A stretch of DNA of 64,000 nucleotides from Myxococcota bacterium (GTDB lineage Bacteria > Myxococcota_A > UBA796 > GCA-2862545), in contig JBCCQY010000008.1 in NCBI GenBank assembly GCA_039208735.1, positions 1 through 64,000 on the forward strand. Reading direction: 5' to 3'. Below are positions 35,801 to 62,394 of the stretch, one piece after another. Both the position numbers and the translations under genes were made by a program. The notes under the pieces were generated by a model, which was not told the origin of the DNA, did no database searches, and saw nothing but the letters and a program-made list of their open reading frames with translations. How positions within the stretch are numbered: the stretch's first letter is position 1; each line of letters begins with the position of its first letter.

Positions 35801-36793
35801 TCACCGTTGCGAATGGACCTGGATCCCTAGTTTCGACGCGCCCTCCACGAGGCTTGAAACATCGAGATGGGGGTGGGGCACACCGAGCTTCAACACCTCC
35901 AAATTCTCGAACGCAGCAAGGTGCCCAAGCAGGACATCGACATCGGCCAAATCACTCTGCGGCAATACGAGCTTTCGCAAGGACTGGACATTGGCCGTCA
36001 TGGACAGCGCTCCAACCAGCCCATGGGCCCCATAAGCGTTTTCAAGCGTCAGCGAGGTGAGCGTGACCCGTTCGAACGGCAACCATGCATCGGACCAGGA
36101 ATGCATCGCCTCCGAGGCCACCCCGAGGTCCACGACGAGTTCCCGAAGCCGCGGACACCCCTCCTCTGGAAAGTAGGGCCACCCCTCGAACGGCCCCTGC
36201 AGCACGAGGCGCTCCAGATACGGCGCACGGACCTCGCCAAGGCGCATGCGATGACCCCGCACGGTCAGCACAACGAGGCGCGACACATGGTCCCAAAGGG
36301 GTTCGAGATCCACGGATGTCGAAGTCACAGCTCGCTCGTTGTAAGGACCGACAAACAGTTCTCGGAGCCCCGCCATCGGCACCTCAGTCAACGCTTCGAG
36401 ACCGGCGGACATTTCGGGAGCGGGGCGAAGCGACAGGCGCTCCAGCAACGAGCCAGAAGGGTGGGCGAGGAGCTTGCGAAGGCTCGTTTCGATGACCCCG
36501 GCATGCATTGCATCGAGCTGCACAGTGTGGAGGTAGCCAAGTCGCCACAACGCCAACGTGTGATGGGCGTCGCTCATGATCGGCCCCAAGACCCTTGGGC
36601 CGGGTAGCGACAGACCGCGCAGCTGGAGCGCAGCCAGGGAGTGTGGCACCAGCGGGGCCAGCGCGGCATTCATCATGTCCCGAGCGAAGTGCACCCTCGG
36701 GTCATCATGCTCGGCCAACCAATCGAACAAGACCGCCCAACGATCGAGGTCCGCGGGTTGTTCTGTAATTCGCGTATAGAGTTTTACATCCAT
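35801..36793 (-). CDS. TIGR02996-like N-terminus plus leucine-rich-repeat protein
   Basis: PADLDRWAVLFDWLAEHDDPR, WRLGYL, repeated LxxLxL. Confidence 0.7.
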   Translation of the reverse strand: MDVKLYTRITEQPADLDRWAVLFDWLAEHDDPRVHFARDMMNAALAPLVPHSLAALQLRGLSLPGPRVLGPIMSDAHHTLALWRLGYLHTVQLDAMHAGVIETSLRKLLAHPSGSLLERLSLRPAPEMSAGLEALTEVPMAGLRELFVGPYNERAVTSTSVDLEPLWDHVSRLVVLTVRGHRMRLGEVRAPYLERLVLQGPFEGWPYFPEEGCPRLRELVVDLGVASEAMHSWSDAWLPFERVTLTSLTLENAYGAHGLVGALSMTANVQSLRKLVLPQSDLADVDVLLGHLAAFENLEVLKLGVPHPHLDVSSLVEGASKLGIQVHSQR

Positions 36794-37070: not shown

Positions 37071-39197
37071 ATGGCGCTCGTTCCATCGGACAAAGCTGGA
37101 CATTGGCACGATCCAGTTGTCGACCTAAACGGCCCTATCACCGTGGCGTTGGTGGTGGGGGTGAGCCACTATCCTCACCTCGGAGGCGGTAACGACCCGG
37201 TGAACGAGACGTTCGGGTTCCAACAACTCAACGTCTCGGCGCTCACGGCGTGGCAGATCTTCAACTGGCTGCGCCACGAGTTCCGAAGCTCCGCCCCCCT
37301 CGCCGAGGTGTGGCTTCTGCTGGCGCCCAGCGACAAAGAGCGTTCGCTGCACCCTGAGATGATGCAACACGCACAGGAACCTGACTTCCTCAACCTTCAG
37401 ACCGCGACCCGCAATTGGGCCCTGCGGGTGCGTTCCATTCCGGAAACGCAACGCGCATCCAGCCGAACGGTCTTCTTCTGGTCGGGGCACGGCGTCGAGG
37501 TGCACACCCGGCGCCAATTGCTGCTCCCGACGGACTGGCCCAAGCTCGACCACCACCTTTGCTTATCGGTCGACAACTTGCGTCGCGGGCTCGATGACAT
37601 CGAAGCCCAACAGATCCTTGTCATCGACGCCTGTCGCACGGGTTCGGCCGAACTCAAAGAACAGGTCGAAGACGGCTCGAGCATCCTCGACGTGGTTCGT
37701 CCCGAAGACACGGTGGATGAGCTGCAGCGAGTCGTGCTGCACAGCACCAAGCCAGGCGCCGAGGCGATGGCTCCACTCGATCCAGCGGCCGGTCCGACCC
37801 TGTTTGGCCGTGCCCTTCTCGATGGCCTCCGCGGCTTTCACGACATCTCCCTTACGCCGAACGGAGGAGGTTCGACCGTACATGTCGACCAGCTCATCGG
37901 CTATCTGAAGCGTCGGGTCAAGGAACTCCTAAAGAAGACCAAGGCACCAACGGGACAACTCGTTCGGCCCCTTCGTGAGAGCAGCAACAACCTGGAGTTA
38001 ACGTTGGTCTTGGCGCCACCAGACCAGCTGCCTCCGGATCCTCCGGAGAGTGTGGCGGTCCAACCCATCGGACTCTCGACGAGGGTCGAGGGCAATCAGA
38101 TCGTGGTCGTAGCGGAAAGCCGCCCCGAGGCCGGTGGATTCCGGGGCGGTGCCATCGAGACCAAGACCTCCATCCCACTCGAAGCCTTAGCCAACGGGGC
38201 TCCCATTTGGGTCACAGAGCGAAATGGTTCGGTCGACCAGGTGTTCGCACGACCTCCCACGCCGGAGGAGGCGCCCGTGGCCTACCGGGTGGGGGACGTA
38301 CGCCGGAATGGAAACTCCGCGACATTCCGCCCCGCGGTGCCCGACCCGCGATTGTGGCGCACCATCGATGATCCGCTCGATCCGGAAACCACCTTGCAGA
38401 CCTCGGTCTGGTCGGCAGCCCGGCTAAGTCCGCTGGAGCAGCCCGAAGAGGACGTGGCCTTCGAACTGGAAGAGCCTCGTTCCAGTCGCGAGGGGCAAAT
38501 GCTTCACGGACGGCTCTCCGCAAACGGACAGGGCGGCCCCTTTTTGCTTCAGCTGCCCGGAATGTCGGTCGTGCTCGCCGGCGATGAAGGTGCCGAGTGG
38601 CGCGTTGAAGCCGGATGGACCCCCAACGCAGAACCGCGTGTCGTGAGCGACCTCCGTGCCGCGCTTCGGTCCGATCGGGATGACCCGCAAGGCCGTTCCG
38701 CTCGGCTGTGGGATCTCTACATGGCGGCAAGCGCAGGAGAAGCGGCGGAACTCGTAGAAAGCTCTTGGATTACGCTCGAGTCACTGCTTGCGGGCAAGCG
38801 CCGAGCCCCGTTTGCTGCCGTGGTCGCCGGTCTCGTGTTGGTGCAAGGCCGCCGTTTTGATCTCACCCACGATTGGCTCGGCAACCTAGCGCGGTGGTTT
38901 CCAACCATTCCAGATACGCACGTGCTCCACGCATACGAGCGCATGGCCTATGGTGCGAGGCGAGATCAAGCCGCCATCGTGGAGGCACTGGCTCCTCTCG
39001 TAGACCACGGACTGCCCTGGACCAGCGATGGATACGCACTCGCCACAGACGTCGTGGAGCGTATCGGCATCGACGATCCTCGGATCGCGAGAATCAGCCA
39101 CGCCCTGAAACGCATGGCCCCTTTCCTCGGTGCCGGCACCCTCTTCGCCACCTTCGTCGACCACCCCCGACGCCCATCCCTGACGGAGATTCTATGA
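37071..39197 (+). CDS. Caspase-like (C14, orthocaspase-type) protease with long uncharacterised C-terminus
   Basis: ALVVGVSHY, FFWSGHG (His), VIDACR (Cys), TLFGRALLDGL; no signal peptide. Confidence 0.88.
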   Translation: MALVPSDKAGHWHDPVVDLNGPITVALVVGVSHYPHLGGGNDPVNETFGFQQLNVSALTAWQIFNWLRHEFRSSAPLAEVWLLLAPSDKERSLHPEMMQHAQEPDFLNLQTATRNWALRVRSIPETQRASSRTVFFWSGHGVEVHTRRQLLLPTDWPKLDHHLCLSVDNLRRGLDDIEAQQILVIDACRTGSAELKEQVEDGSSILDVVRPEDTVDELQRVVLHSTKPGAEAMAPLDPAAGPTLFGRALLDGLRGFHDISLTPNGGGSTVHVDQLIGYLKRRVKELLKKTKAPTGQLVRPLRESSNNLELTLVLAPPDQLPPDPPESVAVQPIGLSTRVEGNQIVVVAESRPEAGGFRGGAIETKTSIPLEALANGAPIWVTERNGSVDQVFARPPTPEEAPVAYRVGDVRRNGNSATFRPAVPDPRLWRTIDDPLDPETTLQTSVWSAARLSPLEQPEEDVAFELEEPRSSREGQMLHGRLSANGQGGPFLLQLPGMSVVLAGDEGAEWRVEAGWTPNAEPRVVSDLRAALRSDRDDPQGRSARLWDLYMAASAGEAAELVESSWITLESLLAGKRRAPFAAVVAGLVLVQGRRFDLTHDWLGNLARWFPTIPDTHVLHAYERMAYGARRDQAAIVEALAPLVDHGLPWTSDGYALATDVVERIGIDDPRIARISHALKRMAPFLGAGTLFATFVDHPRRPSLTEIL

Positions 39198-42100
39198 GTG
39201 TTATCGACCCGCGATTTGTGATCGACCTGGTCGAAGGTCGTTTTGGCCGAACTTCTCGTACGGAACTCGATGCATTGTTCGCGGAGGCGGCGGACCACGA
39301 TCACATTTGTCTGCACGTGCACGGGGGCTTGGTCAAGCACCATGAGGCGCTGAACTCGATCCCCATCCTTCAACAAACCATCGAACCCCATGCTCGCCCC
39401 ATCTTTGTGACATGGAATAGCGGTGCGGTCGAAACGCTGGTCCGCAACCTCGATGAAATTGCCAAAGACGCGCTGGCCCAACGCTTGTTCGCCTGGGCCC
39501 AAGACGAGGCAGAGCGCACCGAAGACCATCCATCGGGCTTCACCAGCGAAGAAGCCCAGGCAAAAGCACTCGCCGCCGCGCTCGCGCGCGACGAGGATCT
39601 GGAACGAGGACTGCGGGCCGCACGCGACCGCGAGGCGGCGGGGTTCTCCCTCATTCCCCAGGTCGTCTCAAGTTCGGTCCTCAAGGAGCTGTTCGAAACC
39701 GCAGCGGGCATCAACTGGATGTCGCTCGCCCTCCGGCTGGTACGCATCGTCGCCGCCGCCGCCAAGCGACAAATGACCGAGCCCGGAAGGCCCTTCCTCG
39801 CAACGTTATTCGAGGAGACGATTCGTTCGCTGTTTGGTGACGTCCTTGGGGAAGCGTACTGGACGGCGATGAAGGGCGATACACGCGAAGCCTTCGCCAA
39901 CCACGACGATCGCGGTGGCCGGCACCTTCTGCAACGACTCGCCTAGTGGTGGCAGCCGGGGCGACGTATCAGCTTTATCGGTCACTCCGCAGGCGGCGTC
40001 TTTTTCTGCCATCTGCTGCAGCATGCCAACCTTCTGCCCGAGGACTGCCGCCTCGACGCCATTCTCATCGCCCCCGCGTGCTCGTTTGAACTCCTCCACG
40101 CTTCGCTGCAGTCAGCAGGAGGCTCTCGCTTGGGCCGGATGCGGGTCTTCGGACTCTCCGACGTGCGCGAACGCGGATACTGGGAGTGGTTTTACCCTGC
40201 GTCACTGTTGTACCTGGTCTCGGGACTGCTCGAAGACAAAAGCGACAAGCCGCTTCTGGGGATGGAACGGTACTGGGACGAAACGCGCTACCCTTCAGCC
40301 GGCGATGAAGCGCTGAACGGGGTGCGCACCTGGTTCACGACCCACGAATCCGCGGCATTTTGGTCTCCTCATGACGGCGAGCCCGGTACCGAAACGCAGG
40401 GCGATACTCACGGCTCGATCAGCGAAGAGTTGGTGACCCTCGAGAGCGTCGGGTGGCTCCTCGAAAACAAGTCTTGGGATGCGTCGGGTAGTTTTTCTCG
40501 CCCGAAGGCGTGCCGAGTGGTGGAACGATGGCAGCGAGCGGCTCGCTCCTTTCCGATCCATCGACGTCAGCCGGCCCCCACCACCGGCGGTCAAGGCTTT
40601 CGAGCCGCGGTTGGCCAGGTCGACCTGACCCGAGAATTGTACCAGTCCACCTTTGGCTATGGTCCGGGGAAGGCCAAGGGCGGTGAGGGGTGGTTCGGGC
40701 GCCTCCGAGCCGTCATGATGCTGTTCGAAGACGATCGAGGCGAACGCGCACTCGTGCTGGGCGCGGATTTGCACTCAGGGGCCCGGTACCTCACCGAAGC
40801 ATTGGCTTGGCACCTCGCGGACATCGGCCTGTCGGTCGATCGAATTGTCTTCACCTCGTCTCACACCCATTCAGGCCACGGACGGTTCTACGGCGTGCCC
40901 ACCTACGATCGACTGGCGGGACGGATCCGTTCACTGTTCGATGGGTTCGACGTACGCGGAACCGCGCGAATGGTGGAGCGCATGGTACGGGAAGCCCGCC
41001 GATTGGAGGGGCAACTGCGACCCGCTCGCATCGGCACGGGACACTCGGATGCGTGGGGAACCCTTTGGAACCGGAGTCTCCCGCCATACCTCGGCAATTT
41101 CTTTGAGCCCACCACCACGTCCGAGGACACCCAGCGCAACACTGTGTTGAATGAGGCCCGACGCTGGCATCCCGGCGGAGAGGTTCCGACCGACCTTTCG
41201 CTTGACCACCTCGCCGTAGACGCACGGATTCGCGTGCTTGTCGTGGGGCCCGATGAAGACGGAGCTCCACCGTGGGGGGCCCTGGCCTTCATGGGAGCCA
41301 GCCCGACGCTGTCAGCGAGCCACCTGCGGTGGTACTCCTCGGACGCGTTTGGAAGTGCGGCGAAGGCGGTCGAACGGACCCTTCAGAAAACCATGGGGCG
41401 CCATGTGCCGATCGGGGTCGTCGGCTCGGCCAATGGGGATGTGAATGTCGTGGTGCGGGGCATGCCCTTCGATACGCTTCAGCGGGCGCGAAACCGGGAC
41501 ATCATCGAGGGCGCCAATGCAGGGGAGCCCAGGCACGTGCTAGATCGGCGAGCCGCGGGAGTCCACGTCGTACGCCGTGCGGCCGAGGCCATCGCCTCCC
41601 ATGTCGTGGATGCCATCTCAACCGGATGGGCGGCGGCGAAGGCACCGTCACAGATCAACATTCGGTTCGAGGAATCTGTGATTCCAGAGGCCACGGGTCC
41701 GATCGAAGCACCGGATGCCCCTCCCCACCTCGGGGCGCCTTCGATCCACCAGTACAAATTGCCCTGCACCTGGATGATTGGAGAATCGACGTTTGCGACG
41801 AGCGAACTCAACCGAGCCTGGGAGCCCGTGCCTCCCGAGCAGGGTGTCGAGCGGTCCAAGAGATTGAAGCCGGACGAACGTGCGCTCCAGATCATCGAAT
41901 GGCGTGACCCCCACAGCCCCAAGAAGCCCCCCGTCAACATTGCGGGGTCACCCCTCCAAGAGTGGCTGTCCTTCATTGGGCCGGTGGGTTCCCTCGGACT
42001 CGATCCCTACTTGCCCCTTCACCTGTTGTCGTTCGACGATGACGTGCACATCGCAGGATTGCCCGCCGAGCTTTCGGTTCACTTCAGCCGGGAATTGCGC

Positions 42101-42802
42101 CAGGCGCTGGATGGCACCCTTGGCGGAGAGGTCCTGCTGGGAGCGCTCGCGGGCGGCTACACGGGATACGCTTCCACGATTGGCGAATATGCCGTCCAGG
42201 ACTACGAGGGTTCCTCCGTCTATTGGGGACGCCACTTCGGGTCGTTGATCCGTCAGCGACTGGCGACGCTGGCCGCGGCATCACCGCAACCGGTCGGTGA
42301 AGGAACGCCAGGGACCGCCTATTTTGTTCGCAACCAGGCGCCCCTCGAAGAGATTGCGATTACGCGCGAGGACGAAGACGACGCAGGGTTTCGGCCCGGA
42401 CCCGATCTTGGCGTGCTCCGACGCAAACTCGAAGGCATCGACAATGATCCGAGCCTCGTGCGGCTCGTGGGGTCCTGGTCACCGCGAAAGAAGCCCCAAC
42501 GTCAAGGCCGATCGCGCATCGGCTCTCCGCAGCCCGCCGGAACGTGGTTTGTACGGTTGATGGAGGGTGACACGCCGTTGATGGTAAATGGAAGCCAGGT
42601 CGATGATCTCACGCACGACATGGGCGTGTGGTTCGATCGCAAGGAACGCCGGTGGGTCTTCGTGTTGGAGATGCCAAAGGCGGTGCTCGCGGGGCGGAAG
42701 ATCACCTACGATCTGCTCGATGACGATCGGGTTCGTCCAGCCGGTGCGTTTCACCCTCCCGAACCCAAGTCCGTCGATGAGATGCCGGATGTAAACCGGT
42801 GA
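39194..42802 (+). CDS. Alpha/beta-hydrolase plus neutral/alkaline ceramidase fusion, interrupted by one in-frame TAG (39944-39946)
   Basis: ORFs ending 39946 and starting 40130 share a frame with no other stop; HVHGGLV, GHSAG, APAC, SLLYLVSG; ceramidase motifs HTHSG, NRS, PAE, YTGY..EY..QDYEG. Confidence 0.78.
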
Positions 42803-44040
42803 TCGAAACACTCAACCATGCGGCCGATCGAGCCTTGGCATCCCTTGCATTTGAGTTCGATGAACTCGAGCGTCAGGCTGCGGCCAACATCGACAACCGC
42901 TTCGTGGCGAACCGTCGCCACATTCACCGATTGCTCTCGATGCTGCGGGCAATGCTGGCCGATCTCAAAGGCGCAGGCCGTAGCACTGTGCAGGATGCGC
43001 TGAAGGTCCTGGATGCCGTTCAGGGCGCCCATGTGGTCTGGGGAGCCTACCGCGACCGGTTCGAGCAACGCGAGCGCGAGGAATGGCGATTCATCCTTCT
43101 TTTAGCTGACGATTTGGCCCGGGAGTGCACCCCTGCCGTCGTGCAACGCGAGCCTCCGTTGGTGATGTTCTCGGCCGAGGGCTCACCAGCCGTCCAGCCT
43201 CGAGGCAGCCCAGAGATCCCCCCGCAGCTGGACACGCCAGAACTCCAGCAACGCTTCCAAGACCTCGTCTTTCGCATTCCTGTGCCCATCCTTCATCTGC
43301 CGTGGCGTTCTTGGACCGATCTCCCTTCATTGGCGGTAGTCGCCCATGAGGTCGGCCACATGGTGGAGCGAGACCTGGGCTTGCCTGTAGCGGACGTCGC
43401 CGCAGATGCCGTGGAACCAGAAGACAGAGACCGAGCTCGTCAGTGGGCCCGCGAACTGTTCGCGGACGCGTGGGGGGTAGCGTGCTGTGGTGATGCGTTT
43501 TTGGAGGCGTTGGCCCTTGCTGAAGCGGCGTCGCCGCAAGCCCTCGCCGACCAGGCACCGCGTGACAAATATCCCCGGGCCCTCTCTCGCCTAAGGGCCG
43601 CTTTTGCCGCCTTTCAGGCACTGGGACTGCCCGACGCTCTTGCCATCGAGAGCCGATGGACGTCGACGTTCGAAATGGCGGGAGCCCCTGCGCTGGCCGA
43701 TCAGCGCGTTGCAATCCAGGTCATGCAGGCGTTCGTGGAACGAACGTGGACGGACGACGTGCGGCTTGACCGTCAGATCCCTGAAGGCAACGTCCAGGAT
43801 GTGGTGACCCGCCTCAACGACCCCACGAGTGGGCTCGTCGGAGGCACAGACGCACGCGTCGTCGTACGGGCCTTGGCGCAGCTGGACCGTGCCCGCTTCA
43901 CCCCGGATGGCGCATCGGCGCTGGCCAAGCAGTGGCGTTCAGCGAGGCACTTCGAAGATGGATTGCTGGTTCCATCCGTCGATGATGAACAACTCGGAAA
44001 GACCTTTGCCCGTCGACTCTTGAGTTCGGAGACCCCATGA
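42799..44040 (+). CDS. Uncharacterised HEXXH (zincin-like) protein with helical N-terminus
   Basis: VVAHEVGH followed by WARELFADAWG; GTGA overlap with the upstream gene. Confidence 0.7.
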   Translation: MIETLNHAADRALASLAFEFDELERQAAANIDNRFVANRRHIHRLLSMLRAMLADLKGAGRSTVQDALKVLDAVQGAHVVWGAYRDRFEQREREEWRFILLLADDLARECTPAVVQREPPLVMFSAEGSPAVQPRGSPEIPPQLDTPELQQRFQDLVFRIPVPILHLPWRSWTDLPSLAVVAHEVGHMVERDLGLPVADVAADAVEPEDRDRARQWARELFADAWGVACCGDAFLEALALAEAASPQALADQAPRDKYPRALSRLRAAFAAFQALGLPDALAIESRWTSTFEMAGAPALADQRVAIQVMQAFVERTWTDDVRLDRQIPEGNVQDVVTRLNDPTSGLVGGTDARVVVRALAQLDRARFTPDGASALAKQWRSARHFEDGLLVPSVDDEQLGKTFARRLLSSETP

Positions 44041-44786
44041 CGTTCGAGGAGTTTCGTGCTGCCCAACCCACGGTGACCGTGGGTGGGAAAACCTGGTTCG
44101 TCGTCGAGGACGACATGCGAATGAACGAGGTGCGACTGCTTCAGTATTGGCAGTCTCGAGTGAGCCAAGCCACGCCCGGGCGCCTGCTCGAAAAGCTGGT
44201 CGGTGGCATGGGTCCCGAGGGACGATTGGTTCGGTGGTCACCCGGGAGCGTCCTGACCTACGCGGTGCTTGACGAGCATTTTCCGTCCCCAGAACGCGCC
44301 GCCACGATCCGCCAGGCCATGCTGGAAGCCGCGAGCGATTGGCAGAGTGTGTGCGGGGTGCGTTTTCAGCGTTTGGACGTTCCCGAACACGAAGCAACGG
44401 ACCGAGAGCGTTGCCTGTTTACCGTCAGGCAACACGACCTGAGTGGTGGGCTCATCGCATTGGCCTTCTTCCCTGACGACCCCGCGGACGAACGCGACAT
44501 CTTTGTCGACCCGACCTTCCCCGCAACGTTCTCCGCGCGGGGCATTCTTCGCCATGAACTTGGGCACATCCTTGGGTTCTACCACGAGTTCACGAGGCAT
44601 GAACTCGACAACATCGACATTGGCGAGGCCGATCTCCGCTCCGTGATGAACTACCCCCAACACGGTGGAGACCCGAGTTTAATGATCACCGACGAAGATG
44701 CTCGCGCAGCTCGCGAGGTCTATGGTTGGCCCGTTGGGGATTCGAAGATGGTCGAGCCACCACCGCCCGATTCCTCCACAGTTTAG
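44037..44786 (+). CDS. Metzincin metalloprotease (matrixin/M57-like) without signal peptide
   Basis: IALAFFP, HELGHILGFYHE, Met-turn SVMNYP; ATGA overlap. Confidence 0.85.
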   Translation: MTFEEFRAAQPTVTVGGKTWFVVEDDMRMNEVRLLQYWQSRVSQATPGRLLEKLVGGMGPEGRLVRWSPGSVLTYAVLDEHFPSPERAATIRQAMLEAASDWQSVCGVRFQRLDVPEHEATDRERCLFTVRQHDLSGGLIALAFFPDDPADERDIFVDPTFPATFSARGILRHELGHILGFYHEFTRHELDNIDIGEADLRSVMNYPQHGGDPSLMITDEDARAAREVYGWPVGDSKMVEPPPPDSSTV

Positions 44787-47579: not shown

Positions 47580-48284
47580 ATGGGCCGCGAATTCACGATC
47601 GACGAACTCGCCGCCGAGACGGGTGTCTCGAGCCGGACGATCCGCTTTTATCAGTCGAAGAAGGCACTTCCTGCGCCGGCGAGGCGTGGTCGGCTAGCGA
47701 TCTACGATGACCGCCACGTCGAGCGCCTCCGCCTCATTGGCAGGCTGCAAGACCAGGGGCTCACCATCAAGGCCATCCGTTCGCTGCTGTCGCGAGCCGA
47801 CCGGGGCGAGATGGAGCTGTCCACCTGGCTCGGACTGAACTCCAAGCTTCAGGTGCCGTGGACCGACGACCCATCCGTCTCGGTGTCGATGGACGAGCTG
47901 GTGGAGAAGATGGGCTCCGATCGCGAGGGTATGGTCGCCGAGCTGGTGCGAGCCGGCGTGGTGAAGCGAACGGGCAAGACCTTCTCGGTGCCGAGCCCTG
48001 CGCTGCTCACCATCACGCTCGAGCTGTCTCAAGCCGGCGTACCCCCCAGCATCAGCGCGGAGGCCGCCGAAATGTTGCGGCGACACCTTTCCCGTGCCGC
48101 CGAGGAGGTTTCCGAACTCTTCCTGGGCCGCTTCGGGGAGAGTGAAGCGCACGCCGAGAAGCTTACCGAGATCCTGGACACCCTCCGGCCGGCGACCCTG
48201 GAGGCCGTCCGGCTGATCTTCGCGCAGGAAATGGACGCAGCACTGCAAAAGGCAGTCGCATCGGGCTCGGTGCGTCTGCGCTAG
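47580..48284 (+). CDS. MerR family regulator
   Basis: FTIDELAAETGVSSRTIRFYQ...HVERLRLI..LQDQGLTIKAI. Confidence 0.9.
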   Translation: MGREFTIDELAAETGVSSRTIRFYQSKKALPAPARRGRLAIYDDRHVERLRLIGRLQDQGLTIKAIRSLLSRADRGEMELSTWLGLNSKLQVPWTDDPSVSVSMDELVEKMGSDREGMVAELVRAGVVKRTGKTFSVPSPALLTITLELSQAGVPPSISAEAAEMLRRHLSRAAEEVSELFLGRFGESEAHAEKLTEILDTLRPATLEAVRLIFAQEMDAALQKAVASGSVRLR

Positions 48285-51265
48285 CGAGCGGGGACCAGGG
48301 GCTGTGGAGCGATTTCGTAGAGCCGCAATGCTTCGGCGAGGCTCGGTGACGTCGCGGACGCCTCCCGGATCTCCTCGAGGACCGATGCCGTGAGCGGAGG
48401 CTGAGCAAGTCGGGTCAAGGCGCGCACCGCGATCGCCGCGTGGGGTGCCAGCGCCCAGCCCCGTTGTTGCAGATCATCCAACATGGAGAGGGCTTCTTGG
48501 TGCTCGTGTCGACGTAGGGCATCGCACGCGAGGTGGAGGCGTGGAGCCCAGCTACCGGGTTGTTCGCTGCATAAAGCTCGATGAGCGGAGGCCGCTTCGT
48601 CGAAGCGTCCCTGCTGGAGCGCGATTTGGCCTTGCAGCGCAAGCACGTTCTGGCGCTCGATCGCGGGGAGCTGGCCACGAAGCAAGAGGATGGCTTGCTC
48701 CTCGGCCTCGTCAGAATTGCCCATGTCGAGCTGCGAGTAGGCGTAGCGAAGGGACGCGCGCACCCATCGACTCCAGTGCCCATTGCTCGCGGCCAGCTCG
48801 ATGACCCGCTGGATGCACCGCAAGGATTCCTCGTGGCGACCCAAGGCGGTGAGCGCCTCCGCCCGGTCGATCTCGATGTCGTAGTCGAGATGACCGTCGG
48901 GCTCGGCAACGCGCCGCGCTCGGTCGGCCACGGCAATCACCTGTCGTGGATCCTCAAGCTCGTTGAGGAGCCGTCCCATCCAGAACAGCACACGGAGGTG
49001 AATGCTTGGGTGGCGCGGCACCTCGCGTTCGAGCTGGCGGAGTTCCTCGAGCAGCACCGGTCCGGGTTGGGTGTGACAACGGATACGTCCCATCAGCTCC
49101 ATGAGCCGAAATCGAGGCTCGAGGCCTTCGAGTCCTACACGCTTCGCCTCCTCCAACGCCTCCGCAGACGCGTCCATGGCCCCCACGAAGTCGCCCTGGC
49201 GCTCGCGAAGCCAGCCCCGCGCGCTCAAAATCCACGCCCGCTGTCCGGAGTCACGGCACTGGCGCAGAGTGGCCTCGATTCGCGCAGCATGCTCGTCGGG
49301 ACTCGCCTTCACCCACCGCGAAGCAAGCACGGCGTAGCCTAGACGTGCCCAATGCTCATGGGTCGGCCGGGTAAGGGGCCAGGTAGCCTTGCACTCGCGG
49401 TAGAGACGCCCCGACTCGCCACGTCCCGTTCGCTCGGCCGCCCGACGCAAGGCGACGGCAAGGGTGCTGGCCTCGTGAGGCCGATCCGTTTGTCGCGCCC
49501 ACTGCAGCGCCTGGCAGACGTCGGGTTCGAGCGCGGAGAACTTGGCGATATCGGCGGACGGGGCGTCCGCACCGATGACGGGCTCGGCGAAGGCCAGAAC
49601 CCAGGCCAGGTGTCGATCGTGGGTCGCACGCAGTTGAGCCGGGTCGGACTCGAGCAGCTCACGGGCCAGCTCGCGCACGCTGTCGAGAAGTCCGAACCGG
49701 GGCGCGTGAGAGGTCTCGCGGGTCACATCGACAAGCGAACACTCCACCAGCTCCCGAAGGCGTTCCAACCACCCGCTCCCGAGAGCACGCGGGATGACGG
49801 CTTGTGCGGATGCCAAGGTGAAGGGAGTACGAAACACTCCGAGCTGCGCGAGCAAAGAGCGTTCCCGTTCGTCGAGTTGTTCGACCGACCACATCAGCGC
49901 GGATCGAAGACTGCTCCACGGGCTGGCCGTCGACTCGCCCTGCAGCAGCGAGAACCGATCGCCGATGCGCCTGGACAGCTCATGTACGCTCATCAAAGCG
50001 AGGTGACGACCTGCGAGTTCAAGCGCCAGGGGCAGGCCGTCGAGCCTGTCGACGGCCAATCGTTCGGCGTCGCGGCGCTCGGCTTCATTGGGCCGCCAGT
50101 GAACGCCCGGTCGCTTCGCGGCATACAGCATCAACTTCACCGCCTCAGGCCCTCCGAGGCCCTCGAGGACGAGCACCTGCTCGTGAGGCACGTTCAGCCT
50201 TCGCCGAGACGTCACGACGATGTGCGTGTTCGGCCGGTTCAGGAACGCGCGCTCGAGAAGGGTCCGAAGTCCGTCGGTGACGAGATCGGCTGCATCGAAG
50301 ACCACAATGTGCTCACCTCGATGCTGAAGGGCCAGCGCAATCGACGCGTCTTGGGAACGCGAGGCATCGTCGACGAGTCCGTAGCTTCCCAGCGTTGCCG
50401 CGAGCAGTCCGTCCTCAGTCCGCACCCGACCGAGTTCAACCCAGACCTGCAGGGTGCCGGAGCGTGCGATCTGCAGCGCCTCGCGCACGAGTCGCGTCTT
50501 CCCCATCCCGCCAGGTCCAACCACGGTGAGCAACCCCGGTGGACCGTCGAGGAACCGTCGCAAGGTCGCCATTTCATTGGCACGCCCTACAAAGTCTCCC
50601 TGCACGGGTTGCGTCACCTGCGGGGTCGCCACCGTCGCGGGGACCAACTCGTAGCCTTGCCCCGATCGATTCACGAGATGTTGCGGTGCCGTAGGATCGA
50701 CCTCAATCTTCTCCCGCAGGCGCTGAATTGAAACGTAGGGTGCGCGGGACCGCGAGCGGGGGTGGTACCCCCAAACGTCCGACAACAGCACACCAAGCGG
50801 TGCGGGCCGATCTCGCAGAGCCAAAAACGACAGCAATCGATGCTCGAGTGCGGTCAGGGAGGTCGCGGGTCGGTCGAGGCGAACCACACGGTGGTGGGTC
50901 AAGTCGATGGTGCCGTCGTGCAGGGGTATCGACGTCGCCGCCGCGCCCTCGTCTGTCGATGCGAAGATGTAGCCTTGATTCTTAATGAACCGCAGGTGGA
51001 TCGCCTCGCGGGGGTCGGGCTAGATCTTGCGCCGGAGTCGCCAGACAGCCTGGTGCACCACCCGAGAGGTCTTGCCCCGACGTGCCTTCCAGACGGTTTG
51101 CCACAGCTCGGACACGGCTACGGGACCTGTGGCCTTCCACAAAACCGCCAGGAGCTGGCACTCGAGGTCACTTAAGCGCACCGGCAAGCCGTGACGGCGC
51201 ATCACCCATTGCTTCTCGAGATCGATCTTTCCATCGGTCAGCAGAATGACTCTGGGCCACGACAT
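48281..51265 (-). CDS. Tandem winged-helix / STAND NTPase / TPR regulator with one in-frame TAG (51020-51022)
   Basis: Two OmpR-type wHTH domains in one frame (RLRRKI*PDP and RLREKIEVDP); GPGGMGKT, DGLPLALELA; TPR-like C-terminus. Confidence 0.8.
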
Positions 51266-53837: not shown

Positions 53838-55181
53838 TTGACCCAGCTCTTTACACTCGTGGATGGCAGTATCGACTTGCACGGTGGACGAATTCGAAGG
53901 GAGGGATCAAACGAGACCCGGATGACGGAAATGGAACACCGTCTGGTGTCCTACCTCGCCCAGCGTGCTTCGCCGGCTCCTGTCGACGAGCTGCTTCGTG
54001 AGGTCTGGGGCTACCACGAGCGCGTCCGTAGCCGCTCCCCCTACGTGATCATCCAACGCCTCCGGAAGAAGATCGAGCTCGAGCCGTCATCTCCTCGCCA
54101 TCTGTTGTGCATTCAGGGACAGGGCTATGTGCTGAGACCGAAGGGCGGTCCGACGGTCGAGCTTCCGCCCCCCTCGCCACTGGCTGAGGACCTGGTCGGG
54201 CGTGCCGAATCGCTGCGTTCGCTCCACCAAGCGGTCGAAGCGGGATGCCGCTGGCTGACCATCCATGCTGGCGCAGGCGTGGGCAAGACGCGGCTCGCGT
54301 TGGAGTTCCTGGCCACCCGACCCTCGATGTCGGTAGACCGCGACGTTCTGCTTCGCCTCGGCCCACACGACAGTCACGCGACGACCCTGGCCTCCCTTCA
54401 CGCGGTCTACGCCGCAACAGGTTCGGATGCGTCGGGGGCGAATGTTCTGCTAAAGACGATCGCCGAACGAGGCCGTCACGTGCTCGTCATCGATGGGGCG
54501 GAGGGCCTTCACGCGACGCTCGCTCCGCGGCTCGATCGCATTGTGGAGTCTACCCGCGACGTCACGCTGCTCGTCACGTCGCGCGTGGTCCTCCGCGGCA
54601 TCCACGAGACGCGATTCACGCTCCCACCACTCGATCGTGCCTCTGCGGGACGCCTGCTCCGCAGCCGAGGACGTCGGTGCGGCTGGGAAACCCGCGACGA
54701 ACCCGCAACCACCGCGCGGCTGGAACGTCTTGCCCACGGCAATCTCGAGGGCAATCCCTTGGCCATCGAACTCGCCGCGTCGAGGCTACCCGTTTTGGGG
54801 CTCTCGGGTCTGGCCGAGGCGCTGAAGGACCGGTTTCGAGTCCTTCGGACGCAGGCACCGAGCTACCGGTTCAACAGTCTCCAGGCCTCGCTCGAGTGGT
54901 CCTGGAAGCTCCTGGACGAAGGCGAGCGGACCTTTCTGAAACAGATCGCCTTGCTCAACAGCCCCTTCACGGTCGCCGAAGTCGAGGCGCTCCCCTTCGA
55001 CCACGAAACGTGGACCATCGACATGCTCCAGGCAATGGTGAACCACAGCTTCGTGCAGCCCGACCAAAGTGCCGACCCGCCTAAGTTCCGGATGCTGGAT
55101 TCCGCCCGTGAGTTCGTTTCGCAGCGCGAGGAGGCTGCTGCACGCCGCGGTCTCGACCCTGAACCATCAGGGAACGATTAG
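53838..55181 (+). CDS. Winged-helix plus STAND-type NTPase regulator lacking the TPR region
   Basis: ELLREVWGY..RSPYVIIQRLRKKIE, GAGVGKTRLA, GNPLAIELAA, ends soon after FRMLDSAREF. Confidence 0.82.
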   Translation: MTQLFTLVDGSIDLHGGRIRREGSNETRMTEMEHRLVSYLAQRASPAPVDELLREVWGYHERVRSRSPYVIIQRLRKKIELEPSSPRHLLCIQGQGYVLRPKGGPTVELPPPSPLAEDLVGRAESLRSLHQAVEAGCRWLTIHAGAGVGKTRLALEFLATRPSMSVDRDVLLRLGPHDSHATTLASLHAVYAATGSDASGANVLLKTIAERGRHVLVIDGAEGLHATLAPRLDRIVESTRDVTLLVTSRVVLRGIHETRFTLPPLDRASAGRLLRSRGRRCGWETRDEPATTARLERLAHGNLEGNPLAIELAASRLPVLGLSGLAEALKDRFRVLRTQAPSYRFNSLQASLEWSWKLLDEGERTFLKQIALLNSPFTVAEVEALPFDHETWTIDMLQAMVNHSFVQPDQSADPPKFRMLDSAREFVSQREEAAARRGLDPEPSGND

Positions 55182-60702: not shown

Positions 60703-62394
60703 TTGGCGTTGCTGGACGAAGTGGCGGCACGGATCGCGAGTGACCTCGACGATCACGAAGCCTGGATGGTGTTGGCAGACGGCCTACTCGACCGTAGCGA
60801 CGAACGGGGGCGCTGGATCCGCCTTCACTACGACCAAGACAGACAGCGCATAGATGAACGGCTCATTCTCGAAGCCCGATGGCACCGTGGTGGACCGAAG
60901 GGCTTTGAGTGGCCCGGGGCCCGGTTGTCGTGGCGGTTTGGATTTGTGGTGCGGGTCGACGTCCATTGGGACGATCGAACGCTCGCCCAGCTCCAGGCGC
61001 TCGATGCGCACCCCGATGGGCTGGTGTGGCGCAGTCTGGCGCTGTCTGAGATGCCTGCCAAAGCCGTCGCAGATTTGCGGTCGGCTGCGTTTGCGAATCG
61101 GCTTCGCACACTCACCCTCGCATCGACCCACTTGGGCGACAATGGACTGTTGAGCTTGGCAAGGGGAAAGTTTCCCTCGTTGACGAAGTTGGACGTCCAG
61201 AACAACGAATGCACAGCGACGGGGCTCGCCGCCCTCGTCGAGGCCCCGTTCATCGGGCAGCTCCGTACCCTGCGCCTTCGCAACAATCCCTTGGGACCTG
61301 CAGGGGGGATGGTGCTCGGCACATTGAAATCGCCGGCTCTCCAAGTGCTCGACCTCACCCGTACCGAACTCACGGATGCAGGGCTCGAGGCATTGGGTCG
61401 GGGGCCTCTCGGTGCGTCGGTCTCAAACCTAGCCCTAGCGGCAAACCAGCTCACAGGCGCGCATCTGACGAAGCTCACGGCGGCAAGAACCGTGGATTTG
61501 TCCCATAACGAGGCGCTATCCGTCGATGCCGTCGCTGCTGCGGCGTGCGGCTGGACGTCACTCGTCCTCGATGGGTGCGCCCTCGTGGACTCCGACGTTC
61601 CTGCACTCCGCGCCGCCTCCGCCCTGAAGGCCCTCTCGCTTTCACGGAACCCGGAATTGTCACTCGCCCGGATGGGGGAGGCGGATCTCCCGAATTCTCT
61701 GCAGTCACTCGTCCTTTCCGGTTGTGCAGTCGCAACCCGAGGATGGCTTGCCCTTGCGGCAGCCTCATTGCCCCACCTCCAGCAGCTTCGGCTCAACGGA
61801 TGCCAGCTGACAGGACTCGGTGACGTGCCTCCCCAAGCGTTTCCTTCCCTTGAGGCGCTCGACATCGGGGCAAATCGGTTGCAGGACGGCGGCTCGGCAC
61901 TCGCCCACGCCTTGCCAGCCTTGCGGACGCTGAAGGCACGGCGCTGTGGCATCGGTGAAGGGCTCGAGGATTGGCGTCATGCGCCCTGGTTCGAGAAGCT
62001 CGAAGAACTGGACCTCAGTGGCCAAACCCTGCCATGGTCCAAACTTCTTGCCGCACGCCGACTGGTGCGACTCAGCCTTGGCCGCTGCAGACTCTCAGGG
62101 ACCCTGCGAGGACTCCACGACTTACCCCAACTCGAGAGCCTGAATCTTTGTCACAATCACCTGTCGAACGCAGCGCCGATCGTTGAAGCCGGACATCCCA
62201 ACCTTCGTCAGTTGAACCTTTCGAGCAACGGCATCGACGACGCCGGTGCCGCACGCCTTACCAACCAGCTCGAATACTTCCCTCGACTCCAGCGTCTAAA
62301 CCTGCGATCGAATCCGCTTTCGTCCTCGATGCAAGCGGCGTTCGAGCAGGCCTCAACTCCCACGATGTTGGAGGTCACCGGCGCTGGCGGTTGA
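60703..62394 (+). CDS. TIGR02996-like N-terminus plus leucine-rich-repeat protein
   Basis: DDHEAWMVLADGLLDRSDERGRWIRL, WRFGFV, many LxxLxLxxN repeats; GAGGAGG RBS. Confidence 0.85.
   Translation: MALLDEVAARIASDLDDHEAWMVLADGLLDRSDERGRWIRLHYDQDRQRIDERLILEARWHRGGPKGFEWPGARLSWRFGFVVRVDVHWDDRTLAQLQALDAHPDGLVWRSLALSEMPAKAVADLRSAAFANRLRTLTLASTHLGDNGLLSLARGKFPSLTKLDVQNNECTATGLAALVEAPFIGQLRTLRLRNNPLGPAGGMVLGTLKSPALQVLDLTRTELTDAGLEALGRGPLGASVSNLALAANQLTGAHLTKLTAARTVDLSHNEALSVDAVAAAACGWTSLVLDGCALVDSDVPALRAASALKALSLSRNPELSLARMGEADLPNSLQSLVLSGCAVATRGWLALAAASLPHLQQLRLNGCQLTGLGDVPPQAFPSLEALDIGANRLQDGGSALAHALPALRTLKARRCGIGEGLEDWRHAPWFEKLEELDLSGQTLPWSKLLAARRLVRLSLGRCRLSGTLRGLHDLPQLESLNLCHNHLSNAAPIVEAGHPNLRQLNLSSNGIDDAGAARLTNQLEYFPRLQRLNLRSNPLSSSMQAAFEQASTPTMLEVTGAGG

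Follow-up and report, generated by a model that had tools for sequence, protein, structure and literature searches.

Caspase-like proteases and alpha/beta-hydrolases of bacteria are known to be encoded together, according to the accessible text of PMC7159879, and the accessible part of a recent preprint (bioRxiv 10.1101/2025.11.14.688446) describes a caspase that cleaves an alpha/beta-hydrolase zymogen twice at Arg-Gly sites, giving a lethal form whose substrate is left undefined. A second group of related systems are the gasdermin operons, in which C14 or CHAT proteases are found with NLR-like ATPases. The stretch of DNA analysed here, called the window, comprises 64,000 nucleotides (positions 1 to 64,000, forward strand) of contig JBCCQY010000008.1 in assembly GCA_039208735.1 of a Myxococcota bacterium, and contains at 37071..44786 an operon of a caspase-like protease, a hydrolase-ceramidase fusion and two zinc proteases. 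This operon is best read as a mosaic in which two conflict modules, each gated by proteases, are joined without a sensor, and its features are as follows.

37071..39197, forward strand: gene 1, caspase-like protease of the C14 type, 708 amino acids (aa), its C-terminal domain being Y4kD_C (PF27295)
39194..39197, forward strand: ATGA stop/start overlap of genes 1 and 2
39194..42802, forward strand: gene 2, alpha/beta-hydrolase, neutral-ceramidase-fold domain and C-terminal domain, 1202 codons
39944..39946, forward strand: sole in-frame TAG of gene 2 (codon 251), upstream of the nucleophile Ser265
42799..42802, forward strand: GTGA stop/start overlap of genes 2 and 3, the junction of the two halves
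42799..44040, forward strand: gene 3, gluzincin-type protein of a family without Pfam or NCBIfam name (here called G3), 413 aa
44037..44040, forward strand: ATGA stop/start overlap of genes 3 and 4
44037..44786, forward strand: gene 4, metzincin without signal peptide and with a prodomain, 249 aa, final stop at 44786

The genes are located on one strand, overlap each other and have intact catalytic motifs; genes 1 and 2 are referred to as half A, and genes 3 and 4 as half B. An initial annotation of this DNA had listed the three overlaps at the same positions, named the C14 dyad, the hydrolase-ceramidase fusion and the HEVGH/ELFAD and HELGHILGFYH motifs, and noticed the lack of signal peptides, all of which is confirmed. 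No hydrophobic signal stretch was found in genes 1–4 with a simple hydropathy test (not SignalP), the best N-terminal 12-mers having values of 1.92, 1.19, 0.92 and 0.99 and the best 19-mer at most 1.43; the peak of 1.92 is the first caspase strand of gene 1. Full-length homologues were found for each of the four frames, and in the 40 of 169 variant rows that were scored, each site singly, there are 19 synonymous and 10 non-synonymous differences in gene 2 and 8 against 1 in gene 3. The homologues and the synonymous excess show that the frames are not due to chance.

We lean, with modest confidence, towards two protease-gated switches stacked in one operon and built from gene pairs that recur separately. 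The four genes are likely to be a self-destruct defence cassette, since the family of gene 3 elsewhere ends operons of immune-type sensors and caspases, and such a cassette would act against phage or other invaders. In half A the caspase of gene 1 would cut the hydrolase-ceramidase fusion of gene 2 and switch it on, and in half B gene 3 would remove an inhibitory prodomain from gene 4, the direction presumably being from gene 3 to gene 4. The freed cytoplasmic metzincin could then degrade the proteins of the cell itself, with a toxic effect. As the usual STAND sensor is missing, the trigger might be read by the Y4kD_C domain of gene 1 or by the helical bundle of gene 3, and gene 1 may replace CHAT as the activator of gene 3.

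Gene 3 has its HEVGH motif at residues 183–187 (43345–43359), followed by Glu219 and ELFAD, and has neither a Pfam family (best expect value (E) 0.067) nor a NCBIfam name. A word-based homologue search returned gene 3 itself alone and a profile search recovered the family: a six-sequence profile finds 2,177 representatives at E≤1e-3 and 1,086 at E≤1e-10, and gene 3 matches the family profile at E 1e-70. Residues H183, E184, H187, E219 and D223 are kept in 148–150 of 150 members, none of which has a signal stretch, and the first four are invariant in 86 of 86 sequences. The 30 G3 clusters in the Atlas have no common Pfam family, the nearest named clusters being U49 and M48 (score 0.77–0.78, a lead only). 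The model of one member, P0063 (predicted local distance difference test 94), has a helical zincin core that bears a bundle of three helices at its N-terminal end; a Foldseek search of the PDB with this model gave none at E≤0.001, its best VIA Z of 7.5 is in the common range, and there is a weak fold match to neprilysin/Zmp1 (Z about 7). The PADLOC profile peptidase_U41 (PDLC03011) is matched by P0063, P0028, P0013 and the G3 of locus L076 (E 2e-28 to 6e-7), with no match at 1e-5 for four other G3s and no PADLOC match at E 0.1 for gene 3. The family has been glimpsed before, in this profile and perhaps also as the "Peptidase U49" gene named in a gasdermin-operon figure legend in the accessible text of PMC9612521. 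A G3-type peptidase is not described in the accessible parts of bioRxiv 10.1101/2021.06.07.447441 and PMC8195603.

The family also has distant branches. The members of one subfamily (L131–L158) are about 550 aa long, have a membrane helix at the N-terminus and often lack HExxH; they are flanked by a flotillin-like gene on one side and a gene for an Lhr-like helicase on the other (named by eye). Members of another distant subfamily (L147:1450-3606, L156 and L165:7736-11155) directly follow proteins with a Glu-rich N-terminal leader, in a position like that of a leader peptidase. A G3-like cluster in L009 and L010 (G262:C75) is fused to an unnamed C-terminal domain, some members having a broken HExxH, and lies among TIR/SLOG-like genes (by eye).

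The usual surroundings of G3 were obtained by scanning genome contigs with 20 central G3 members as queries, gene 3 excluded, by which at least 38 loci were confirmed; L080 was removed from the 38 as a YpfJ-like false match, having given no profile match. A large STAND gene is located directly upstream of G3, or fused to it, in 30 of the 37 loci listed, and a CHAT gene is present in 27 of them (25 of the CHAT assignments were checked with Pfam); one locus has no upstream sequence at all and four more end short. An operon with the order CHAT-ATPase, STAND-TPR-peptidoglycan-binding and G3 is conserved across many phyla among L043–L079, best seen in L047:2872-12266, L064:2684-12111 and L066:1577-11422. 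L068 and L071 have G3 fused to the STAND, and L061 has it fused to CHAT. One of the 37 loci, L066, encodes a PADLOC gasdermin (E 7e-37), and 11 have an unnamed 275-aa gene in the slot of the gasdermin. No evidence that the 275-aa product is a gasdermin was obtained, as it has no match in PADLOC, Pfam, NCBIfam or PDB and an hhalign probability of 2.4% to the gasdermin of L066. In four Streptomyces loci (L073:6048-8185, L074, L075 and L077) this slot gene and G3 stand alone, without CHAT or STAND, and in at least three of them a radical SAM gene follows; these loci suggest that G3 can act on the slot gene product directly. A plasmid locus, L162:6304-14376 (NZ_CP088023.1), has the order patatin, DUF2252, phospholipase D, G3, CHAT, CHAT, and also holds a dCTP deaminase, an S8 peptidase and a second weak G3 match on the opposite strand.

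In the literature searched, with supplements and subscription papers outside its scope, there was no account of a CHAT-STAND-G3 operon with its metalloprotease or of signal-less zymogen cargo, nor of a caspase-ceramidase pairing or fusion or of Y4kD with a caspase. Such neighbourhoods might nevertheless appear in the source-data tables of PMC7159879 and PMC8195603 or in the supplements of the two preprints.

Gene 4 matches both M10 and astacin above the Pfam cut-off, with HELGHILGFYH at residues 173–183 (44553–44585) and the Met-turn at Met204, and Foldseek gives E values of about 1e-7 to astacin/M10-type metzincins (myroilysin 5gwd, karilysin 2xs3). In the prodomain Asp26 is invariant in 26 of 26 sequences of the family, in a motif V-E-D-D-M resembling the aspartate switch of astacins, where, according to the accessible text of PMC9629494, the propeptide motif F-E/Q-G-D-I places its Asp on the zinc. 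Judged by its sequence, gene 4 is likely to encode a dormant zinc protease, i.e. a zymogen. None of the four gene 4 types beside a G3 has a signal stretch, and a signal-like hydrophobic stretch is present in 20 of 23 gene 4 homologues without G3 within 1.5 kb. In one scan of viral contigs, made with a single query, there was no gene 4 relative.

The pairing of genes 3 and 4 recurs. In L064 and L076 a gene 4 type lies directly behind G3, and P0013 is a natural G3-gene 4 fusion; altogether the two types are adjacent four times and fused once, and the five G3s linked to gene 4 fall in one 14-row clade (SH-aLRT, the Shimodaira-Hasegawa-like approximate likelihood-ratio test, 89; quick tree of 55 rows). 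The genome of the window has another G3/gene 4 pair (G000:C2:170844-174052, i.e. L011:10845-14053, minus strand), which precedes a signal-less S8 subtilase, downstream of which are a DUF4423 helix-turn-helix gene, a sigma-54 activator and a kinase. In five places, four related actinomycetes and the second G3 copy in L056, the gene behind G3 instead encodes a trypsin that lacks a signal and has an I[IV]GG activation site. A complex prediction for genes 3 and 4 had a score of 0.00, which is no answer and counts neither way.

A wider interpretation, which we put forward tentatively and consider rather unlikely, is that G3 constitutes a so far undescribed executioner tier of bacterial NLR immunity, the signal passing from STAND to a CHAT or C14 caspase, to G3 and to interchangeable death cargo. 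The cargo would be the gasdermin-slot proteins, or trypsins, subtilases and metzincins of once exported types that are turned on the cell, and the window would hold a sensor-less, caspase-driven version with a ceramidase-fold effector for lipid amides.

In half A, gene 1 matches Peptidase_C14 (PF00656) above the Pfam cut-off (28 against 21.4 bits), His140 (37488–37490) and Cys188 (37632–37634) do not vary among all six sequences aligned, and the start at 37071 lines up with the starts of five homologues. The assignment of the C-terminal domain to Y4kD_C, which has no assigned function, comes from precomputed annotation and Atlas clusters. An orthologue of gene 1 is absent from four same-genus genomes and from G429. 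In addition to the TAG in gene 2 there are two further non-synonymous differences, in gene 1 at window positions 37091 and 37117, where contigs of two sequencing runs, X1 and X2, agree against the window.

Relatives of the hydrolase domain of gene 2 are located immediately 5' of C14 caspase genes in L081 and the same-genus locus L122 (Pfam E 5e-11 and 6e-5), and in L123 the domain precedes a caspase-like gene (profile E 1e-6). In L122:11566-17369 (G418) the hydrolase, the C14 caspase, a 471-aa gene and a FAD (flavin adenine dinucleotide) lactone oxidase gene are all coupled; the 471-aa product is Y4kD_C-like by eye, without a match to our own profile. Nine plasmid matches to a gene 1 homologue were obtained, two of them covering at least 80%, and both of these near-full-length caspases are preceded by a gene with HGV...THSMG hydrolase-type motifs (by eye) that has no Pfam or NCBIfam match. 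The hydrolase-ceramidase fusion P0005, the sole other fusion with visible neighbours, is followed by a TPR-CHAT gene (E 2e-56) and a clostripain gene (E 3e-42), and the neighbours of the third fusion, P0004, lie outside the data. No significant match was found between gene 2 and the hydrolases of L056, L159 and L160.

Gene 2 itself consists of a hydrolase at about residues 1–425 (Ser265, His406; GHSAG elbow), with a weak DUF900 match below cut-off (17.9 against 20.5 bits), a ceramidase-fold domain at about 455–1040, and a C-terminal domain. The protein matches Ceramidase_alk (PF04734) above cut-off (60.6 against 32.1 bits), and the ceramidase-fold domain matches PDB entry 2zws by sequence profile with E 3.5e-15. 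Three copies of the fusion are known, the full-length homologues P0004 (43%) and P0005 (40%) being intact, as is P0156, a protein of 1202 aa in the same 90% cluster as gene 2. The substrate of the ceramidase-fold domain may be some amide, a lipid amide being one option.

A single four-step cascade, with proteases in series that release the ceramidase domain to destroy sphingolipids or similar amide lipids, would agree with the translational coupling at all three junctions, but we give it a low probability. As reference residues we used His97, His99, Arg160, His204, Glu411 and Tyr448 of 2zws, which we take to be the zinc ligands and catalytic residues, and five of the six are kept in gene 2 (H557, H559, R627, E959 and Y992), which also speaks for such a cascade. 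The same can be said of the patatin and phospholipase D genes beside the plasmid G3 with CHAT in L162, showing that lipid-attacking genes do occur with G3. Against it, the four-gene set, or both halves together, was seen in no other locus read, and the cut-off of the NCBIfam neutral-ceramidase equivalog NF041649 is far from reached (38.7 and 37.4 against 1200 bits). The initial annotation had asked whether the genes are co-located elsewhere, which is true of each half separately and not of the whole set; the cytoplasmic, protease-rich nature of the operon and its ties to caspase-type conflict systems (the caspase/hydrolase neighbours, P0005 and the CHAT-STAND-G3 operons) are supported, and a conserved four-gene system is not.

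Several observations weigh against the two stacked conflict modules as well. For the effector of half A, all 7 subfamily members, whether fused or not, have Ser or Thr in place of His204, in a weakly scoring stretch of the alignment, and this also tells against the single cascade. The unfused ceramidase-like relatives in L124–L127 sit among ordinary genes. With one ceramidase zinc ligand replaced and such relatives in ordinary neighbourhoods the lipid-attack step of the initial annotation is weak. Stand-alone hydrolase relatives are likewise found in ordinary neighbourhoods. Of 25 metagenome loci with the hydrolase domain, only the one with the best score had a caspase neighbour; for the remaining 24, the 31 neighbours available, which come from 19 loci, included no caspase at E≤1e-5, many of the contigs being short. 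Finally, there is no invariant Arg-Gly in the three aligned gene 2 fusions, unlike in the published zymogen.

For half B the census itself favours the central clade, many of its loci are kin, and the profiles were built from the same loci. In 30 of the 37 loci listed there is no downstream protease detectable by our own profiles, and since this holds for most G3 loci gene 4 should be considered an optional cargo. Gene 3 departs from the family at 9 of 40 near-invariant columns, most of the 9 belonging to the N-terminal bundle, where the family median is 1 of 40, and its place in the tree is unsure because of a long branch. The CHAT-ATPase and large STAND-TPR genes that lie upstream of G3 elsewhere are absent from the window and were not found in the genome, which is 92.7% complete; a gasdermin beside the protease was not found in window or genome with PADLOC and our own profiles, and neither was a STAND, gasdermin or 275-aa gene of the G3-operon type in the genome with the profiles built here. 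The 25 flanking genes of the window include no defence gene, with generic ATPase and helix-turn-helix matches only; the window is no defence island.

A function outside defence, namely regulated intracellular proteolysis together with turnover of amide lipids or small molecules in development, stress or prey digestion, and with G3 as a general maturase, would be in line with the lack of a defence island, with the ordinary neighbourhoods of the stand-alone hydrolase and ceramidase relatives, and with the distant G3 relatives in non-defence settings, beside flotillin-like and helicase genes or acidic-leader proteins (by eye). We nevertheless consider it improbable: close G3 relatives are mostly in CHAT-STAND operons (the 30 of 37 loci above), plasmid copies have Qat, DUF262, WYL and integrase genes nearby, and the occurrence is patchy. 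Among 301 genomes of the phylum two, including the present one, have a full-length G3 (E≤1e-70); gene 3 as single query matched 4 of 401 phylum genomes, 251 genomes of the phylum of L064 gave two G3 matches, and the full fusion is present in 2 of 154 genomes of the order.

The in-frame TAG was also noticed in the initial annotation; it is present at codon 251 but not fixed. The codon is Glu in the near-identical P0156, and a contig of run X1, possibly the source of the window, has a G at 39944. In run X2, which belongs to another study, a contig of depth 4.6 spans 39944 without that G, and the same run carries a 333-base contig identical to the window. P0004 and P0005 (40–43%) are uninterrupted across the site. 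The population thus contains an intact gene 2, which leaves a strain allele or an assembly error as the origin of the TAG; since the X2 contig covers the site without the G, a genuine nonsense allele at strain level is no less probable than an error. In the present assembly gene 2 is switched off by this codon. Recoding of TAG was rejected, as TAG ends 696 long frames in the genome and the homologues carry Glu or Ala at the site.

The nonsense codon, possibly present in the second sample too, would fit a decaying remnant whose cargo genes drift towards pseudogenes after loss of the STAND sensor, and so would the 9 of 40 conserved residues lost by gene 3, the lack in gene 4 of the cysteines of its family and of about 14 residues after the zinc motif, and the fact that no cognate STAND was found in the genome. 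Such decay is in our view a minor possibility, as every catalytic motif and all three overlaps are intact, an intact gene 2 allele exists, genes 2 and 3 together have 27 synonymous against 11 non-synonymous differences in the same 40 of 169 variant rows, and the second sensor-less G3/gene 4 pair in the genome is intact.

The genome is 9.4 Mb with 64% G+C, and the G+C content of third codon positions is 0.68–0.72 in genes 1–4 and 0.70–0.84 in seven neighbours. A protein of G429, a genome of the same family, bears the NCBI label Myxococcota, which points to a myxobacterium as the host. A scan for promoters and terminators gave no signal above chance. Leucine-rich-repeat-like proteins are encoded at 35801-36793 (minus strand) and 60703-62391 (plus strand) of the window and at L011:4299-5200. 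The first is divergent from gene 1, with weak matches to STM4015 and TIGR02996, and the other two are similar by eye. Winged-helix ATPase-TPR regulators at 48281-50902 (minus strand) and 53922-55178 (plus strand, by eye) flank exported-looking proteins and are unrelated to the STAND of the G3 operons.

Protease-gated death effectors are much studied at present, and in the literature cited here their characterized activators are cysteine and serine proteases. If the present interpretation is true, G3 would contribute a tier of metalloproteases and a cascade of three steps comparable to those of animal innate immunity. The family comprises more than 1,000 diverged zinc proteases and is found at the end of CHAT-STAND operons in at least eight phyla, the putative cytoplasmic zymogens downstream being seemingly interchangeable. 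Complete CHAT-STAND-G3 operons are present in cultured Saccharothrix, Streptomyces, Ideonella and Sinorhizobium and are directly testable, and this operon outweighs the particular mosaic of the window as the result to follow up. The hydrolase-ceramidase fusion offers a handle on the substrate of caspase-activated hydrolases.

Compared with described proteins and systems, G3 shares HExxH and a downstream Glu with Lit (peptidase U49) and with the M48 and M13 gluzincins, but it is a separate family with an N-terminal helical bundle; Lit cleaves EF-Tu on infection by phage T4. The neutral ceramidases (Pseudomonas 2zws, human 4wgk; PF04734) have the HTHSG, NRS, Glu and YxxY/YEG motifs that are kept in gene 2, whereas gene 2 has the His204 position replaced, no signal peptide, an N-terminal hydrolase and a score far below the equivalog cut-off. 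Gene 4 has the HExxHxxGxxH motif, the Met-turn and a prodomain with an invariant Asp in common with the astacin and M10 metzincin zymogens (5gwd, 2xs3; accessible text of PMC9629494), but these are exported, and gene 4 lacks a signal, a C-terminal domain and the cysteines of the family.

The gasdermin operons with C14 or CHAT proteases and NLR-like ATPases (accessible text of bioRxiv 10.1101/2021.06.07.447441 and PMC9612521, in which no role for the peptidase of these operons was found) are similar in that G3 is present in such an operon, L066, and has some members that match peptidase_U41; the window has neither gasdermin nor STAND, and gene 3 itself is without a PADLOC match. The closest relative of half A is the LcCaspase/LcHydrolase zymogen module of bioRxiv 10.1101/2025.11.14.688446, in the searched text of which the words ceramidase, metalloprotease and zincin are absent. 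As far as it is described there, it has a C14 caspase adjoining a cytoplasmic alpha/beta-hydrolase with intact catalytic residues, as seen here. It differs in that LcHydrolase is about 33 kDa and the hydrolase domain of gene 2 about 425 aa, that gene 1 carries Y4kD_C and not STAND or a beta-propeller, and that the present locus has no conserved Arg-Gly sites, a ceramidase-fold fusion and two zinc proteases downstream. The initial annotation knew of no named system with this composition; the full composition was indeed not found elsewhere, but the caspase/hydrolase pair had been described in both PMC7159879 and this preprint. The caspase/hydrolase death-effector logic is already published, and the fusion to a ceramidase fold is the new part.

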